Assembly (NCBI GenBank): GCA_003221005.1
Contig: QHTZ01000079.1
Location: 13,750 to 77,749, forward strand
Direction of reading: 5' to 3'
Source of the DNA: Gemmatimonadota bacterium
GTDB lineage: Bacteria > Gemmatimonadota > Gemmatimonadetes > Gemmatimonadales > GWC2-71-9
Length of the DNA stretch: 64,000 nt
Under the pieces are notes generated by a model that saw only the letters and a program-made list of their open reading frames with translations, ran no database searches and had not been told where the DNA came from. Both the position numbers and the translations under genes were made by a program. Positions 57,167 through 62,877 of this stretch are shown one piece after another (positions within the stretch are counted from its first letter, which is position 1; the number at the start of each line of letters is the position of its first letter).

Positions 57167-58671
57167 GCCCCCGCGCGCTTGAGGATGAATTCGCTGAACA
57201 GGCGGACGCCGACCGCCGTGGGGCCCTTGGATTGGTACGGCGCCTCGCTCTCGGTGTAGGCGGTGCCGGCGATGTCGAGATGCACCCACGGGTATCCGTC
57301 CGCGAACTCCCGCAGAAACCAGCCGCCGGCGATCGTCCCGGCGCCCCGGCCGGCGGAGTTCTTCACGTCGGCGACGTCGGACTTGAGGAGGTCTCGGTAC
57401 TCGTCCCACAGCGGCAGCGGCCAGCAACGCTCGCCGGCGCGCTCGCCCGCCTCGCGCACCTCGCCCAGCAGCGCCTCATCCGTCCCCATGATGCCGATCG
57501 CGGCGTGGCCGAGCGCCACGACGACGGCGCCGGTGAGCGTCGCCGCATCGAGCACAGCCACGGGCTTGAAGCGGCGGGCGTACGACAGCGCGTCGCACAG
57601 AATCAGCCGCCCTTCGGCGTCCGTGTTGATGATCTCGATCGTCTTGCCGGAGAGGCTCCGGATCACGTCCCCGGGCTTGACGGCGGTGCCCGATGGAAGA
57701 TTCTCGGTTGCGGGGATCAGCCCCACCACGTTGATCTTGGGCTTGAGCCGGCCCAGCGTTTCGAACGTGCCGAGCACGGCGGCCGCGCCCGACATGTCGA
57801 ACTTCATGTCCTCCATGTTCTGCGCCGGCTTGATCGAAATGCCCCCGGAGTCAAACGTCACGCCCTTGCCGACGAGCACGACCGGCGCCGCGTCACCACC
57901 GCCCCCCCCCCGGTACTCGAGCACGATGAAGCGTGGCTCCTGCGCGCTTCCCTGTGCGACGGCGAGCAACGCCCCCATCCCCTGCTTTCCGATCTCCTGC
58001 CGGTCGAGGGTGGTGGCCGTAAACCCGTACGCGTCCGCGAGCCGCTGTGCCTCGTTGGCGAGGTACGCGGGGGTGCACACGTTGCCGGGTTGCACCTGGA
58101 GGTAGCGGGTAAGCCGATGGCCGGCGGCGATCGCGTCGCCCACGCGCCGGCCTGCCTCGGCGTCCTTCGACTCGCGGTCGTCGCACACGATGACGATGGC
58201 GGCGACCTCGGGGCGCGGGTCATCGGGCGCGGCCTTGAGCTCGGTGAAGCTCCAGGCGCCCTGCGCGGCGCCTTCGACGATCGCCTGACCCAGATCCCGC
58301 GCGGTCGTGCCGTTGCGTGCCTCGGTCGCGACGGCGCAGGCGAGCTGCGTGGCGCCGAGCGCCCGGGCGCGCTTGCCGCCGACGGCGGCGGCGCGACGCA
58401 GGGTGTTGCGGGTCACGTCGCCCGCCTTGCCCATGCCTACGAGGAGCACGCGCTGCGCCTTCCCACCCGCCGGGTAGAGGAGGCTCGTCTCGTCGCGCTT
58501 CCCCTTGAAATCACCGCTCGTGATGGCGCGCGTCAGCACGCCGCCCGCAGCCTGGTCCAGTGCCGCGAGGGAAGCAGGGACGCTGGTGCCCTCGGCGAGC
58601 GCCACGGCCAAGAGGGGCGTTTCGATGGCGGCGAGAGGCGTTGTGACGACGCTGCTCGCGGGCTCAGACAT
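57163..58671 (-). CDS. pepA: Leucyl aminopeptidase (M17)
   Basis: [39 protein letters not shown]. Confidence 0.97.
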
Positions 58672-59866
58672 GCTCGATTATGCAGTCGGCGAAGGTAGAG
58701 GTCGAGACCTCGGTGGCGTTGGGCATGAGGCGCGCGAGGTCGTACGTGACCCGGCGCGCTTTGATCGCGCCGGCGAGCCCGCGCACGATCGCGGCCGCGA
58801 CGTCGCTCCAGCCCAGCTCCTCGAACATCATGGCCCCCGACAGAATTACGCTGCTGGGATTGATCTTGTTCAGGTTCGCGTACTTCGGGGCGGTGCCGTG
58901 CGTCGCCTCGAACACCGCGTAGCCGTCGCCCACGTTGCCGCCGGGAGCGAGCCCCAGCCCGCCGACCTGCGCTGCAGCGGCGTCCGAGAGCAGGTCGCCG
59001 TTCAAGTTGGGCGCCGCGATCACCGAGTAGTCGTCGGGGCGCAGGACCAGCTGGGCGAACATAGCGTCCGTGATGCGGTCCTTGATGACCACTCGTCCCC
59101 CGTCCCCCTTCCCCCTTCCCGGGTCTTCCTCCGGAACCGTCTGCTCCCCGAACCGCTGCTTCGCCACCTCGTACCCCCACTCCCGGAAGCCGCCCTCGGT
59201 GAACTTCATGATGTTGCCCTTGTGCACGAGCGTGACGGACTTCCGACCCGACTGGATGGCGTACTGGATCGCCTTTGCCACCAGTCGCTGGCTGCCAAAC
59301 TTGGACATGGGCTTGATGCCGATCGCGCTCCCCGGGCGGATCTTGGCCTTGAAGTGCTCGGTGAGGAACTCGATCACGGCGTCGGCTTCGGAGCTCTGGG
59401 CGCGGTATTCCACGCCCGAGTAGACGTCCTCGATGTTCTCGCGGAAGATCACGACGTCGAGCTTCTGGGGCTCGCGCATCGGGCTCGGTACGCCCTCGAA
59501 GTAGCGCACCGGCCGGATGCAGGCATAGAGGTCGAGCAGCTGGCGCAGGGAGACGTTGAGCGAGCGGATCCCGCCACCGACCGGGGTGGTCAGCGGGCCC
59601 TTGATCGCGACGCGGTGCTGGCGGATGGTGTCGAGGGTGGCATCCGGGAGCCAGCTGCCCACCGTCTTGAACGCCTTCTCGCCGGCGAGCACCTCCAACC
59701 ATTCGACGCGGCGCTTGCCGTCCGACACCTTCTGGACCGTCGCCTCGAACACGCGGCGCGCCGCCCGCCAGATGTCAGGCCCGGTGCCATCCCCCTCAAT
59801 GAAGGGAATCACCGGGCGGTCGGGCACGATCCAGCGGCCGTCGCGGAAGTCGATGCGATCGCCCAT
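58664..59866 (-). CDS. icd: NADP-dependent isocitrate dehydrogenase
   Basis: [54 protein letters not shown]. Confidence 0.97.
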
Positions 59867-59918
59867 CTCTCGACACTCCTATCGGGAACGCGGTGCAGTC
59901 TACACGGTGGCGGCGGGG

Positions 59919-59947
59919 TTGCGCCAGCGGAACGCGGCAGTCATACT
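59919..59947 (+). promoter_or_regulatory. sigma70-like promoter of the porin cassette
   Basis: TTGCGC (59919-24)-17nt-CATACT (59942-47), 9 nt before ATG 59957; no SD. Confidence 0.55.
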
Positions 59948-59956
59948 ATTGCCTGC

Positions 59957-60307
59957 ATGCGTCGTCATCGCGCACCGTACCGCGCTGTCTTCTGGCTCGC
60001 CGCCACCTGTTGGTTGGCTGCCGGCCCCGGCGGCGTGGTGGTGCAGGCGGCCATCGCCTGCCGCCACGCCGCGATGCAGATGCCCGGGGACACTCGCGAA
60101 GGCCACCACATGCCGCCGGGTGGCCCATGCTTCTGTAGTCAGATGGTCGGCGCGTTCGACCACGTGCTGTCGGCGGCGGTGCCGGCGGTGGAGCCGGAGA
60201 GCAGTGTAATCCCGAGCCCGGTTCTGGCCGCGACCGACCTATCCCCCATCCCTCTTCCCCCTTCCCCCGCTTTCGCTCCGGAGCCCCCTCCCCCGATCGT
60301 CGCGTAG
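59957..60307 (+). CDS. Small exported Cys/His/Met protein with C-terminal polyproline; CutF/CruR (DUF2946)-like leader ORF
   Basis: 116 aa: basic plus hydrophobic N-terminus, ACRHAAMQM...GHHM..GPCFCSQM, Pro-rich tail ending APEPPPPIVA*. Confidence 0.75.
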   Translation: MRRHRAPYRAVFWLAATCWLAAGPGGVVVQAAIACRHAAMQMPGDTREGHHMPPGGPCFCSQMVGAFDHVLSAAVPAVEPESSVIPSPVLAATDLSPIPLPPSPAFAPEPPPPIVA

Positions 60308-60346
60308 GCTGAGCTCGCAGCTTCTCAACCTACAGTCTTCGGGAGG
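60287..60346 (+). promoter_or_regulatory. Putative SD-sequestering mRNA structure
   Basis: CCTCCC (60287-92, Pro codons) is complementary to GGGAGG (60341-46, SD); inner stem GTAGGCTGAG (60304-13)/CTCAACCTAC (60324-33) pairs 9/10. Confidence 0.6.
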
Positions 60347-60351
60347 AACAC

Positions 60352-61410
60352 ATGCGCAGTGCACTGTGGTGTGCTCTGCTGTGCGGGGTCACGGCGGAGC
60401 TGGCCGACGCGCAGGGCGTGCCGGTCACATTTGAGGAACCGCAGCCGGTCACCGTTTCGGGGTTCGCTGTCGGCACGGCGGAGTACCACCGCCTGGAGCG
60501 TATGAACACGCTCGGCGCCGGCAAGCTCGCGGTAAGTGTGTTCAAGCCGGTCGGCGAGACCTACTTCTTCGGGCAGCTCACCACGGCCCTGGAAGGCGGG
60601 GAGGCGTCGACCGAGATCGACAATCTGCTCGTGAGCTGGACCCCATCGCACGCGAGCCAGTGGTCGTTCGCCTTCGGTCGCTTCGACGCGCCGCTCGGCT
60701 TCGAGCGCGACGACGAACCGCTCAACCTCACGCCCTTTACGTCCTTCAACTTCGAGCTCGCGCGGCCCGCAAAATTCACCGGGGCCATCGTGCGCTACAC
60801 GGCGTCGCGCCATCTCGCCTTCGCGGCGGCCATCACGAACGGCTGGAACGTGACGGAGGACAACAACCGGGGGAAGACCGGCCTGCTGCGCGCCGAGTGG
60901 ATTGCGACGGAAGGGCTAACGCTCGGTGTCGCCTGGGTGTACGGGCCGGAGCACGACGGCACCGACGCTTTTCAGCGGAGCCTGTTGGCGACGGACCTCA
61001 CCGTGCAACGTGGCTCTGTCATCGTGGGGGCCGAGTTCAATCTGGGAGGGGAGCGCGACGCCATGGGTGGCAGTCTCCGGTGGGTGGGCGGCGCGGTGAC
61101 GGGATTCTACCGCCTGACGCGCTCGCTCGGGTTTAGCGCCAAATACGACCATCTCGACGACACGCACGCGGTGGTGTCGGGCGTGCCGCAGGTGCTGCGC
61201 TCGTTCACCATCGGGCCGATGTGGTTCTATAGCAGTGCTCAGGAAGGCATCTTCTCGAACGTCGAGCACACAACCTTTCACATCCCCCGGATCGCGGTGC
61301 GGGCGGCGCTGCACGTGCACTATTCGACCGAGCCGTTCTTCGCGAACGACCAGGGTGGCCTCGAGCGGCAGGACACGCACGCGGTGCTCGAGGTGTTCTA
61401 CGTCTTCTAG
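60352..61410 (+). CDS. Outer-membrane beta-barrel porin (BBP2/OprO-like)
   Basis: Signal peptide (ADA|Q), FGRFDAPLGFE, NGWN...DNN..KT, amphipathic strands, terminal Phe (VFYVF). Confidence 0.82.
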   Translation: MRSALWCALLCGVTAELADAQGVPVTFEEPQPVTVSGFAVGTAEYHRLERMNTLGAGKLAVSVFKPVGETYFFGQLTTALEGGEASTEIDNLLVSWTPSHASQWSFAFGRFDAPLGFERDDEPLNLTPFTSFNFELARPAKFTGAIVRYTASRHLAFAAAITNGWNVTEDNNRGKTGLLRAEWIATEGLTLGVAWVYGPEHDGTDAFQRSLLATDLTVQRGSVIVGAEFNLGGERDAMGGSLRWVGGAVTGFYRLTRSLGFSAKYDHLDDTHAVVSGVPQVLRSFTIGPMWFYSSAQEGIFSNVEHTTFHIPRIAVRAALHVHYSTEPFFANDQGGLERQDTHAVLEVFYVF

Positions 61411-61418
61411 GAGGCGCG

Positions 61419-61970
61419 ATGCTCTACGATCTGCGACGAGCTGACGCCAGGGTGAAGTGGCTCGTCACCTGTCTCCTCGCCACGCTCGGGCTCGGCTACC
61501 TATTCGGCTCGTGGATGGTGGGGCTCTTCAGCGGATTCACTCCGCAGTCCGTGGCCGTCACGTTCGCGTCGCCCGAGATGCACATGGCGATGCCGCCCGC
61601 GAGCACAATGGTGATGGAGCATCCCATGACGCTCCAGGAGTTCGGAGCGCACGACCACTACACGGTGGACCGTAACCTGCTAGTCCAGGACACGCACGTG
61701 CACGTGCCGATCTACGGCATCATCGCGGCTGCGCTGTCGCTCGTGGTTCTGGGACTCGACCTGGCGCGTCGTTGGGGCTATGCGCTGATCACCCTGCTCT
61801 TCGCCGCGCCGTGGCTCGATTTCGCGGGGATGTGGCTCACGAAGCTGGTGTCGTCCGGGTTCGCCGTGCTCACGGTGGCCGGCGGGTGGGCCATGGGGTT
61901 CGCGTACACGATTGTGACCGGCGTCGCGCTGTGGCAGATGTGGCGGCCGACGCCAGGAGGTGTGCCATGA
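61419..61970 (+). CDS. 4-TM inner-membrane protein with Met/His-rich loop and THVH motif
   Basis: SD GGAGG; TM1, loop EMHMAM...MVMEHPM...HDH, QDTHVHVP, three more TMs. Confidence 0.8.
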   Translation: MLYDLRRADARVKWLVTCLLATLGLGYLFGSWMVGLFSGFTPQSVAVTFASPEMHMAMPPASTMVMEHPMTLQEFGAHDHYTVDRNLLVQDTHVHVPIYGIIAAALSLVVLGLDLARRWGYALITLLFAAPWLDFAGMWLTKLVSSGFAVLTVAGGWAMGFAYTIVTGVALWQMWRPTPGGVP

Positions 61971-62509
61971 GACAACTACTCGCGAGCGCGGTCGCGGCCG
62001 CGCTCCTCCATATCAGTCCGACCGTGATTCTGGTGAAGCGCCCCGATGCCGTGCAGCAGCTGCTTCCCGGCGCGGACCGGTTCCTGGCGCGGGAACTGCA
62101 CCTGAGTGCGCACGACGCGCACCGATTGCACGAGGTAGTCGACTGGAGCCCCGAGGACGGTGTGCTGACATTCTTTGTCGGTAAGGACGGTGGGAAGGAC
62201 GTCGGCACGCTCGAGTTCGTGCGCGTGGACACGCCGCACGGCCCGCTCGAGGTCGCAGTGGGCTTTACGCCGGAGCGCACCGTGCGCGGGGTGATCGTCA
62301 CCAAGGCCACGGTGGAGAGCAAGCCATGGGTGCTCGCGGCGCTCCAGGCCGGGCTTACGGAGCATTACCGCGGCCTGAAGCTCGCGGACGCCCCAGGCGG
62401 AGCGGCGGCCATCAAGAATCGCATCGCTGATCTCCCGGCCTACATGGCGCAGGAGGTGGACAAGGGAGTCGCGCGCGCCCTTGTGGCGTACCGCGATTTC
62501 TACCGGTGA
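61967..62509 (+). CDS. Exported FMN_bind(RnfG-like)-fold protein, His-rich, lacking the SGAT flavinylation motif
   Basis: ATGA-coupled; signal peptide; DTPHGPLEVAVGFTPERTVRGVIV resembles FMN_bind strands; C-terminal helix EVDKGVARAL. Confidence 0.6.
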   Translation: MRQLLASAVAAALLHISPTVILVKRPDAVQQLLPGADRFLARELHLSAHDAHRLHEVVDWSPEDGVLTFFVGKDGGKDVGTLEFVRVDTPHGPLEVAVGFTPERTVRGVIVTKATVESKPWVLAALQAGLTEHYRGLKLADAPGGAAAIKNRIADLPAYMAQEVDKGVARALVAYRDFYR

Positions 62510-62514
62510 GCTAA

Positions 62515-62877
62515 CTAGAAGGCGCTCGCGAGGTACTCTTCGTTCCAGGCGATGTCGAACAGCCCGTTGCACCGCTGGCACCGCAGGTTGGTCGGTCGCC
62601 CGTGCACGGGAGCACGATCGCGGCAGCTGGGGCAGACGGCGTAGTACGGTCCCCAGGTTGCCGGGAGCCGGGGGGCGTTGTCGGGCCGCGGGACCACGGT
62701 CCAGCGCTGCGGAGGGATGGCGAGGATCTCGACGAATGGGCGGGGCACTGGTGTCGGATTGCCCTTCACGTCCACGACGACTTCCAATGGAGCGGCCCTG
62801 AGCAGCCGGTACCACGCGCCGCGGCGCAAGTCGCAGTTGACGTCCGCCCGCAGCCGTGCCCACTGCCGCTCCGCCAT
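62515..62877 (-). CDS. Hypothetical protein with C-terminal Zn ribbon
   Basis: SD GAGG upstream; YAVCPSC...LRCQRC. Confidence 0.7.
   Translation of the reverse strand: MAERQWARLRADVNCDLRRGAWYRLLRAAPLEVVVDVKGNPTPVPRPFVEILAIPPQRWTVVPRPDNAPRLPATWGPYYAVCPSCRDRAPVHGRPTNLRCQRCNGLFDIAWNEEYLASAF

Follow-up and report, generated by a model that had tools for sequence, protein, structure and literature searches.

What is the function of a small, exported-looking protein encoded ahead of a porin gene in bacteria of the phylum Gemmatimonadota, and what do the genes behind it handle? The question is raised by a stretch of 64,000 nucleotides (nt), referred to here as the window, from a metagenome-derived Gemmatimonadales assembly (GCA_003221005.1, 93.9% complete; contig QHTZ01000079.1, positions 13,750 to 77,749 of the forward strand). 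On its plus strand, the window carries four co-oriented open reading frames (ORFs), namely ORF1 (59957-60307, 116 amino acids), a putative nascent-chain metal sensor and ribosome-arrest leader; ORF2 (60352-61410, 352 amino acids), an OmpL-like β-barrel porin of the BBP2 family; ORF3 (61419-61970, 183 amino acids), a four-helix membrane protein of the family PF27139 (Aq_1264_TM); and ORF4 (61967-62509, 180 amino acids), a protein with the fold of the flavin mononucleotide-binding domain FMN_bind. The genes are separated by gaps of 44 nt and 8 nt, while the start of ORF4 overlaps the stop of ORF3 by 4 nt (ATGA). ORF4 is present in 3 of 41 related genomes, and the four-gene block is accessory in its lineage. 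A first-pass annotation, made from the sequence of the window, had described four tightly spaced, co-oriented, accessory-looking genes and had compared ORF1 with the leader peptides CruR of Bordetella and CutF of Rhodobacter; as to layout, coordinates and accessory character, it was right.

It is argued here that ORF1 is likely a leader in which a ribosome pausing at proline codons frees the Shine-Dalgarno (SD) region of the porin gene, and in which the metal state of an exported Cys/His/Met motif determines the duration of the pause. As to the fuller reading, in which a metal-sensing leader of the CruR/CutF kind would gate a TonB-independent uptake route, the evidence on balance inclines us towards it.

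Conservation of the Gene Set

In a scan of one genome per species, ORF3 was found in 125 genomes; 80 loci were kept, nearly all of them labelled Gemmatimonadales or Gemmatimonadota. The porin gene lies directly before ORF3 in every one of the 80 loci, and ORF4 follows ORF3 in 79, the sole locus without it stopping at a contig edge; the ORF3/ORF4 overlap is of the ATGA type in most of the loci listed. This porin-ORF3-ORF4 arrangement is far beyond chance, and the three genes are tightly coupled and co-inherited. An ORF1-like gene precedes the porin gene in 72 of the 75 loci that have enough upstream sequence, ends 34-97 nt before it in nearly all of these 72, and is always the first gene of its operon. 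The co-conservation on which the first-pass annotation had staked its proposal, including that of ORF1 upstream of homologous porins, is thus a regular feature of these genomes.

Sequence and Spacing of ORF1

ORF1 of the window contains 5 His, 5 Met, 4 Cys and 20 Pro residues. A basic N-terminus is followed by a hydrophobic stretch, the CFC motif noted in the first-pass annotation occupies residues 58-60, and the terminal PEPPPP, likewise noted there, belongs to the end PEPPPPIVA, in which three residues follow the prolines. All aligned ORF1 sequences have a basic N-terminus and a hydrophobic stretch of about 13 residues, and in this sense look exported. Cys18 had been considered as part of a lipobox and was rejected as such, several homologues being devoid of that residue. 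The family comprises 118 clusters, none of them with a precomputed Pfam family.

ORF1-like genes fall into two sequence types, A and B, which are alignable over the Cys region only (hhalign 74%). In type A, the basic N-terminus is followed by the hydrophobic stretch CWLAAGPGG, C-x-H-H, a His-rich run and P-C-[FWY]-C-x-x-M, and then, after a variable spacer, by S-P-S-F-x-P-x-P-P-P-P-N-x-x-x-stop; in 29 sequences, C35, C58, C60, M63, P112 and P113 are invariant, and H37 is nearly so. Type B is laid out as H-A-C-P-x-H, H-C-T-C-P-Q-A-C-C-P, spacer, and L-L-P-F-A-L-A-P-P-x-x-x-x-stop, with C52 invariant and C24, C53, H33 and H45 nearly invariant in 11 sequences. A conserved Cys/His/Met motif, putatively metal-binding, is therefore found in the exported-looking part of both types, and so is a Pro-Pro motif near the stop at a fixed distance from it, which reads PPPP or APP rather than RAPP. 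The distance of the last Cys from the last Pro-Pro is 51-53 residues in type A (n = 48; exactly 51 in 35 of the 48) and 47-48 residues in type B (n = 11). In 34 of 48 type-A and 6 of 11 type-B sequences, the Pro-Pro is succeeded by four residues. The spacer is variable in sequence and fixed in length. Cys motif, Pro-Pro motif and spacing are, in other words, all conserved across the homologues of ORF1.

Proline Codons and the Porin Shine-Dalgarno Region

The codons that specify the terminal prolines are at the same time complementary to the SD region of the porin gene. In the window, an anti-SD element, CCCCCUCCCCCGA (60286..60298, plus strand), lies within the Pro codons of ORF1 and pairs with positions 60338-60348 in the minimum-free-energy and in the centroid fold; the porin SD region, UCGGGAGGAAC (60338..60348, plus strand), is hence predicted to be sequestered by them. 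The pairing joins CCUCCC(CC)GA at 60286-60298 with UCGGGAGG at 60338-60345.

This complementarity recurs throughout the family. Of 72 loci, 66 have CCUCC within the terminal 36 nt of ORF1, compared with 88 of 4475 windows taken from ORF2-4 and 29 of 604 windows taken elsewhere in ORF1. In this lineage of high GC content, CCT accounts for 4% of the Pro codons in ORF2-4 and for 10% of those further upstream in ORF1, but for 31% over the final 12 codons of ORF1. The porin SD is GGAGG in nearly all loci. When the last 39 nt of ORF1 were compared with the 18 nt before the porin start, the longest perfect complement averaged 7.5 nt; 59 of 66 loci had one of 6 nt or longer, but only 39 of the 487 control windows taken from other parts of the same ORF1 genes did. 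The pairing sequences differ between the two types, being CCUCCGAA:UUCGGAGG in type A and GCCCCUCCAC:GUGGAGGGGC in type B. Partition-function folding gives a probability above 0.5 for the pairing of SD and ORF1 tail in 62 of 69 loci; the mean amounts to 0.83, and to 0.58 with shuffled tails. Alignment-free counts were used here in place of RNAalifold, and folding energy was dropped as evidence. Judged by codon choice and complementarity, the tail of ORF1 is under selection at the RNA level.

Interchangeable Cargo

In three sister genomes of the same genus (G003, G005 and G006), the same icd-adjacent site is occupied by an ORF1 homologue that heads a gene for a TonB-dependent receptor, and the porin set is absent. 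The homologue from G003 is 54% identical to ORF1, has the same Cys motif and ends in PETPPPILA, the receptor gene beginning about 148 nt downstream; in this variant locus (L107, G003:C139:83600-88882; likewise L108 and L109), the ORF1 homologue is located at 189-527 and the receptor gene at 676-2682. In the minimum-energy fold of L107 (z = -0.84, not significant), GGAGAC immediately ahead of the Pro codons pairs with GUCUCC directly behind the start codon of the receptor gene. Two other genomes of the genus, G001 and G004, have no match to ORF1 or to either cargo beside icd, i.e., the site is empty, and in G001 icd abuts the desaturase gene that elsewhere follows the cassette. Within a family sample of 151 genomes, type-A ORF1 occurs in 22; behind it are found the porin gene and ORF3 in 18 genomes (17 without the unpublished G299) and a TonB-dependent receptor gene in three, while the remaining genome, a weak match, is ambiguous. 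As judged from gene order, the cargo behind ORF1 is interchangeable, and this is its strongest link to CruR.

Comparison with Known Leader Peptides

To our knowledge, CruR and CutF, both DUF2946 proteins of Proteobacteria, are the only nascent-chain sensors of extracytoplasmic metal that have been studied. CruR (Bp2923, DUF2946) heads the copper-regulated genes bp2923-bfrG-bp2921 of Bordetella pertussis and possesses an export signal, a CXXC motif located 45 residues before the sequence RAPP, and RAPP itself 3 residues from the end (PMC9426467). CutF, which contains a CxxxC motif, heads cutFOG of Rhodobacter capsulatus, where stalling at PPP melts a stem-loop over the next SD and copper induces the cargo (bioRxiv 10.1101/2025.02.05.636593); CutF is described as not detectable in cells (PMC9973294).

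Like CruR, ORF1 is the first gene of its operon and encodes an exported-looking product with a Cys motif at a fixed distance before a Pro-Pro near the stop; its cargo, too, has an outer-membrane channel as its first member and an inner-membrane protein as its last, and in the three sister genomes it heads, as CruR does, a TonB-dependent receptor (PMC9426467). Unlike CruR, it has the motifs CxC...M and PPPP/APP in place of CXXC and RAPP, these motifs are set 51 or 47 residues apart instead of 45, and the gap to the next gene measures 34-57 nt in most type-A loci, while it is 162 nt in CruR. CruR acts via Rho-dependent termination, whereas the SD of the porin gene is predicted to be paired with the Pro codons, and the cargo of the window is a porin instead of a TonB-dependent receptor. 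With CutF, ORF1 shares the Cys-bearing, exported-looking peptide, the C-terminal prolines and, by prediction, the shielded SD of the next gene (bioRxiv 10.1101/2025.02.05.636593; PMC9973294). It differs in that the anti-SD strand would lie inside the Pro codons themselves; moreover, CutF belongs to DUF2946 and its cargo, a multicopper oxidase, is copper-induced, whereas the cargo in the window resembles an uptake route. A C-terminal stall of an exported leader that exposes the next SD would also be shared with SecM-secA and other arrest leaders, as these are outlined in the introduction of the CutF preprint, where stalls of the SecM type are released by pulling on the nascent chain (bioRxiv 10.1101/2025.02.05.636593); SecM, however, senses export capacity and not metal.

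Feature by feature, the comparison drawn in the first-pass annotation holds, and it is strengthened by the complementarity of Pro codons and SD and by the TonB-receptor variant. The regulatory logic is already known, while the leader family, the placement of the anti-SD in proline codons and the cargo would be new. In the literature searched, no description was found of the gene set, nor of any CruR-like leader that heads a porin gene, which agrees with the earlier view that the set is uncharacterised; the supplementary family tables on CruR and CutF may list relatives, and the words "porin" and "gemmatimonad" are absent from PMC9973294. DUF2946 genes of canonical layout, in which CxxC is followed after about 45 residues by RAPP and then, 3-6 residues later, by the stop, also occur in Gemmatimonadota (loci L091-L094, L096, L097, L100 and L101); they score over the Pfam cut-off in 5 of 201 genomes.

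Cargo Proteins

The porin-like barrel predicted for ORF2 was confirmed by a match to the Pfam family BBP2 (PF07642) over residues 82-291, with an expectation value (E) of 1.7e-16 and 60.8 bits (cut-off 26.2). Across 72 sequences, an acidic motif, F-E-R-D-D-E-P-L-N (residues 117-125), is invariant and many further acidic residues are kept, and no His, Met or Cys is conserved. Among the literature matches listed, there was no relevant description under PF07642, BBP2 or OmpL-like.

The Met/His clusters that had been attributed to ORF3 are real: the protein contains 11 Met and 6 His, and M54, M56, M58, H93 and H95 are invariant among 16 homologues. The periplasmic loop between helices 1 and 2 contains an invariant M-x-M-x-M-P-P, helix 2 begins with an invariant Q-D-T-H-V-H (H93-x-H95), and an invariant D134 is located in the third transmembrane helix. 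The AlphaFold2 model consists of four helices and is of low confidence (mean predicted local distance difference test score, pLDDT, of 66); a Foldseek search of the model against the PDB gave no fold match at E <= 0.001, and a sequence-profile search of the PDB gave nothing below E 0.19. ORF3 was placed in PF27139 by the precomputed Pfam label on the 120 homologues listed, together with Atlas clusters. For aq_1264 and PF27139, a family without described function, no description was found in the literature searched.

Even the distant relatives of ORF3 in other phyla have both the HxH motif and the Asp unchanged. The loops of these relatives are rich in His, Met and Asp, or they contain a CxxCH haem motif, as in 9 of the 14 that were aligned (P0323, P0346, P0347, P0352, P0361, P0362, P0364, P0366 and P0367). 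The 19 metagenome loci of distant relatives are mostly short, and their neighbours were judged by eye; some (among L113, L114 and L118) adjoin cytochrome c maturation-like genes, and in L118 the ORF3 relative follows a gene for an outer-membrane barrel. A search for domain fusions in ten longer ORF3 relatives found no Pfam family. P0321 (379 amino acids) contains an ORF3-like and an ORF4-like stretch in one chain, with low-complexity sequence in between, and probably reflects a frameshift in the gene call and not a genuine fusion.

ORF4 is composed of a short N-terminal hydrophobic helix and an RnfG/NqrC-like (FMN_bind) fold. Its AlphaFold2 model has a mean pLDDT of 93.2 and matches RnfG in Foldseek with E 5.7e-6 and a template modelling score of 0.57, while its sequence profile matches RnfG weakly (E 0.014); the Atlas label is "FMN-binding protein family", for a cluster of about 3,000 members. 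There was no Pfam match at E <= 1, PF04205 included, nor a precomputed one among the 120 homologues listed, so that of the relationship to PF04205 considered earlier, the fold match by structure stood and the family match did not. ORF4 resembles RnfG and NqrC in its fold and in having a hydrophobic helix at the N-terminus; it differs from them in its partner, a protein with four transmembrane helices unrelated to Rnf/Nqr subunits, and in the lack of a canonical [S/T]GA[S/T], the flavin acceptor motif (PMC8238504). In the acceptor-equivalent region, be it D165-K-G-V-A-R-A171 or the G-x-L/M-P before the last helix, no Ser or Thr is present; T112-K-A-T115, though conserved, falls in the alignment on the strand that precedes the ETPG loop in RnfG. 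The invariant residues of ORF4 include H15, D88, H91, T115 and E117, which by strand order should lie at one edge of the sheet. With 7 His and 2 Met in 180 residues, the earlier description of ORF4 as His-rich, or as carrying Met/His clusters, was overstated, H15 and H91 being invariant nonetheless. ApbE was not found in the source genome (G000, 93.9% complete); it is present in all five other cassette genomes, where it is never linked to the cassette, and its absence from G000 was therefore rejected as proof of a flavin-free ORF4.

Complex prediction, which had been suggested for these proteins, gave a score of 0.46 for ORF3 with ORF4, against 0.00 for the best control, with runs agreeing in at least 61% of contacts and a partner pLDDT of at least 82. 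Of 80 solved complexes, 58 reached the mark applied to such scores, and so did 2 of 110 mismatched pairs; only 7 of the 80 solved complexes reached it with a score of 0.60 or under, as did both of the mismatches that passed. The prediction lends weak support to a binding of ORF3 to ORF4.

Promoter, Genomic Setting and Transcripts

A promoter-like hexamer pair (59919..59947, plus strand; TTGCGC, 17 nt, CATACT), of which position 59919 is the first base of TTGCGC, ends 9 nt before the ATG of ORF1. When the 60 nt upstream of ORF1 were compared (loci L006-L082), the 48 type-A loci were all found to have a TTGCGC / TAnACT-like pair that ends 7-9 nt ahead of the ATG, while type B has a TATAAT-like hexamer that likewise ends 7-9 nt before the ATG of ORF1; a scan with the strict sigma-70 consensus gave no promoter match. 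Since 7-9 nt leave no space for an SD sequence, the mRNA of the operon is probably leaderless or nearly so. The reading frame of ORF1 is open for 600 codons further upstream (58505-60307, plus strand), antisense to icd. This long extension was rejected as a high-GC artefact, and the true start is placed at 59957 because of the conserved promoter and the MR-rich N-terminus.

The cassette is flanked by the isocitrate dehydrogenase gene (icd, 58664-59866, opposite direction) and by a small Cys-rich gene on the minus strand. The latter (62515-62877), directly downstream of the cassette, encodes a protein of 120 amino acids with two CxxC pairs (zinc-ribbon-like), and two tandem copies of such a gene adjoin the cassette in G015 (L005, 3927-4310 and 4357-4788). 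Across the loci, the only recurrent neighbours are icd and an aminopeptidase gene (pepA), both upstream, neighbour clusters having been identified by position and by likeness to genes of the window rather than by Pfam.

In two soil metatranscriptome runs of one study, four contigs of 151 nt were found to be at least 99% identical to the porin gene and ORF3 (60330-60619, 61240-61390 and 61502-61652). They are compatible with transcription of the cassette, DNA carry-over being possible as well; the parts that are not covered are uninformative.

Proposed Mechanism and Alternative Explanations

Gene set, conservation, spacing, complementarity and interchangeable cargo are evident from the sequences, and ORF1 is read from them as a regulatory leader of the CruR/CutF type rather than an ordinary protein gene; export, stalling, metal, polarity and transport are what we infer. 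ORF1 would be translated from a leaderless or near-leaderless mRNA and be exported cotranslationally. About 50 residues roughly span the ribosome tunnel plus the Sec channel. The Cys/His/Met motif, which precedes the prolines by about 51 residues, would therefore just have passed both and have reached the periplasm, where it would meet the metal, by the time the ribosome arrives at the prolines with about four codons left to the stop. The Pro codons (CCUCC) would pair with the porin SD; a ribosome paused on them would keep that SD open, while a ribosome running through would let the hairpin close over it. By altering the length of the pause, metal on the nascent chain would set the translation of the porin and, through close coupling, that of ORF3 and ORF4. 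The polarity would most likely be that of CruR, in which metal releases the pause and the operon is switched off. This polarity and a role in uptake are favoured because the alternative cargo is an importer. The metal sensed would most likely be copper or another soft metal, given the analogy to CruR and CutF and the Cys/Met/His chemistry of the motif. The cargo, in turn, would constitute a TonB-independent uptake route in which an acid-lined pore of the outer membrane would be joined by a periplasmic protein of FMN_bind fold, bearing a His/Asp/His/Glu site, and by a small Met/His protein of the inner membrane; MxMxMPP and HxH of ORF3, H15/D88/H91/E117 of ORF4 and ERDDE of the porin do look like metal ligands. 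In its most specific form, a three-part TonB-independent route for copper or another soft metal (BBP2 pore, flavin-less ORF4 as binder, ORF3 as permease) placed under a sensor family invisible to Pfam, with Pro codons as anti-SD and a leaderless mRNA, the proposal is tentative and, taken as a whole, doubtful.

Several observations weigh against this reading of the locus. ORF1 has no match to PF11162 (DUF2946), the family to which the first-pass annotation had directed attention, at E <= 1 in Pfam, and NCBIfam is negative as well; a six-frame search of the source genome with PF11162 gave no match at E <= 10, the five cassette genomes searched contain only sub-threshold matches at other places, and alignment by hhalign with eight canonical DUF2946 genes of the same phylum yielded a probability of 5% for type A and of 1.4% for type B. 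Membership of ORF1 in DUF2946 was rejected on these grounds; the protein appears CruR/CutF-like by every architectural feature tested and is not demonstrably of the same family. Its export rests on a judgement of the alignment by eye. At the RNA level, C-rich tails still pair with the SD when shuffled (mean 0.58, against 0.83 observed), the junction fold of the window is no more stable than shuffled sequences (z = 0.58), and RNAalifold returned no consensus pairs for 29 junctions, in which MAFFT had misaligned the SD. Related genomes are not independent, so that the locus counts overstate the evidence. There is no metal-related gene among the conserved neighbours of the cassette, and the TonB-dependent receptor of the sister genomes is generic and not of the copper type (TIGR01778, 20 bits, cut-off 472). 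ORF4 may carry a flavin, ApbE being encoded in all five other cassette genomes, and CxxCH in distant relatives of ORF3 and the fold of ORF4, which is that of a redox protein, are suggestive of electron transfer more than of transport. Finally, polarity cannot be read from sequence.

The last point leaves room for the polarity of CutF, with metal prolonging the pause and inducing an operon whose products would sequester, chemically reduce or oxidise, or release excess metal, and so protect the envelope, instead of importing it. In its Met-rich loop, ORF3 may resemble periplasmic Cu(I) resistance proteins. A pause that opens a shielded SD is the very RNA arrangement of CutF, whose cargo is copper-induced (bioRxiv 10.1101/2025.02.05.636593). 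Yet the alternative cargo behind ORF1 is a TonB-dependent receptor, hence an importer, a porin would be an odd part of a detoxification system, and neither an efflux pump nor an oxidase is found among the conserved neighbours, so that CutF polarity is rated as rather unlikely. A different objection concerns ORF1 itself, which might be a stable exported metal-binding protein, chaperone or anchor, its Pro-rich end serving as a spacer and the SD complementarity reflecting ordinary translational coupling. A length of 116 amino acids, conserved Cys, His and Met residues, a long Pro-rich tail and the persistence of the family across many genomes (118 clusters) would suit such a protein. What makes it improbable is that the middle 50 residues vary in sequence but are fixed in length, that the distance from Pro-Pro to the stop is fixed, that the rare codon CCT is chosen in the tail, and that the same ORF1 serves two unrelated cargoes; in addition, its size is close to that of CruR and of CutF, the latter being reported as undetectable in cells (PMC9973294).

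The remaining alternative concerns the cargo. ORF3 and ORF4 might form an extracytoplasmic electron-transfer module, for instance a metal reductase, so that it would be envelope redox chemistry that is regulated. The RnfG/NqrC fold of ORF4, CxxCH in the periplasmic loop of 9 of 14 distant ORF3 relatives, the cytochrome c maturation-like genes seen by eye beside some of these, and ApbE in five of five other cassette genomes are all in line with such a module. Against this, ORF3 of the Gemmatimonadales is devoid of CxxCH, ORF4 has no [S/T]GA[S/T] at the acceptor position, the nearest sequence, T112-K-A-T115, aligning elsewhere (motif according to PMC8238504), and ApbE was not found in the source genome and is never cassette-linked; we regard an electron-transfer role as quite unlikely. 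The preferred reading remains a leader that would hold the porin SD open for as long as the ribosome pauses on the prolines, and that would switch an uptake route off when metal is bound.

Conclusion

The design of CruR and CutF, recurring in another phylum and in a family missed by current profiles, suggests that the mechanism is wider than the census of DUF2946 proteins would indicate. With the Pro codons themselves as the anti-SD strand, the mechanism would be unusually readable. The cassette would also provide a first testable role, in metal handling, for a subgroup of BBP2 porins, for PF27139 and for a flavin-less family of the FMN_bind fold. The occurrence of either a TonB-dependent receptor or the porin set behind one and the same leader would, finally, constitute a natural experiment on metal import with and without TonB.

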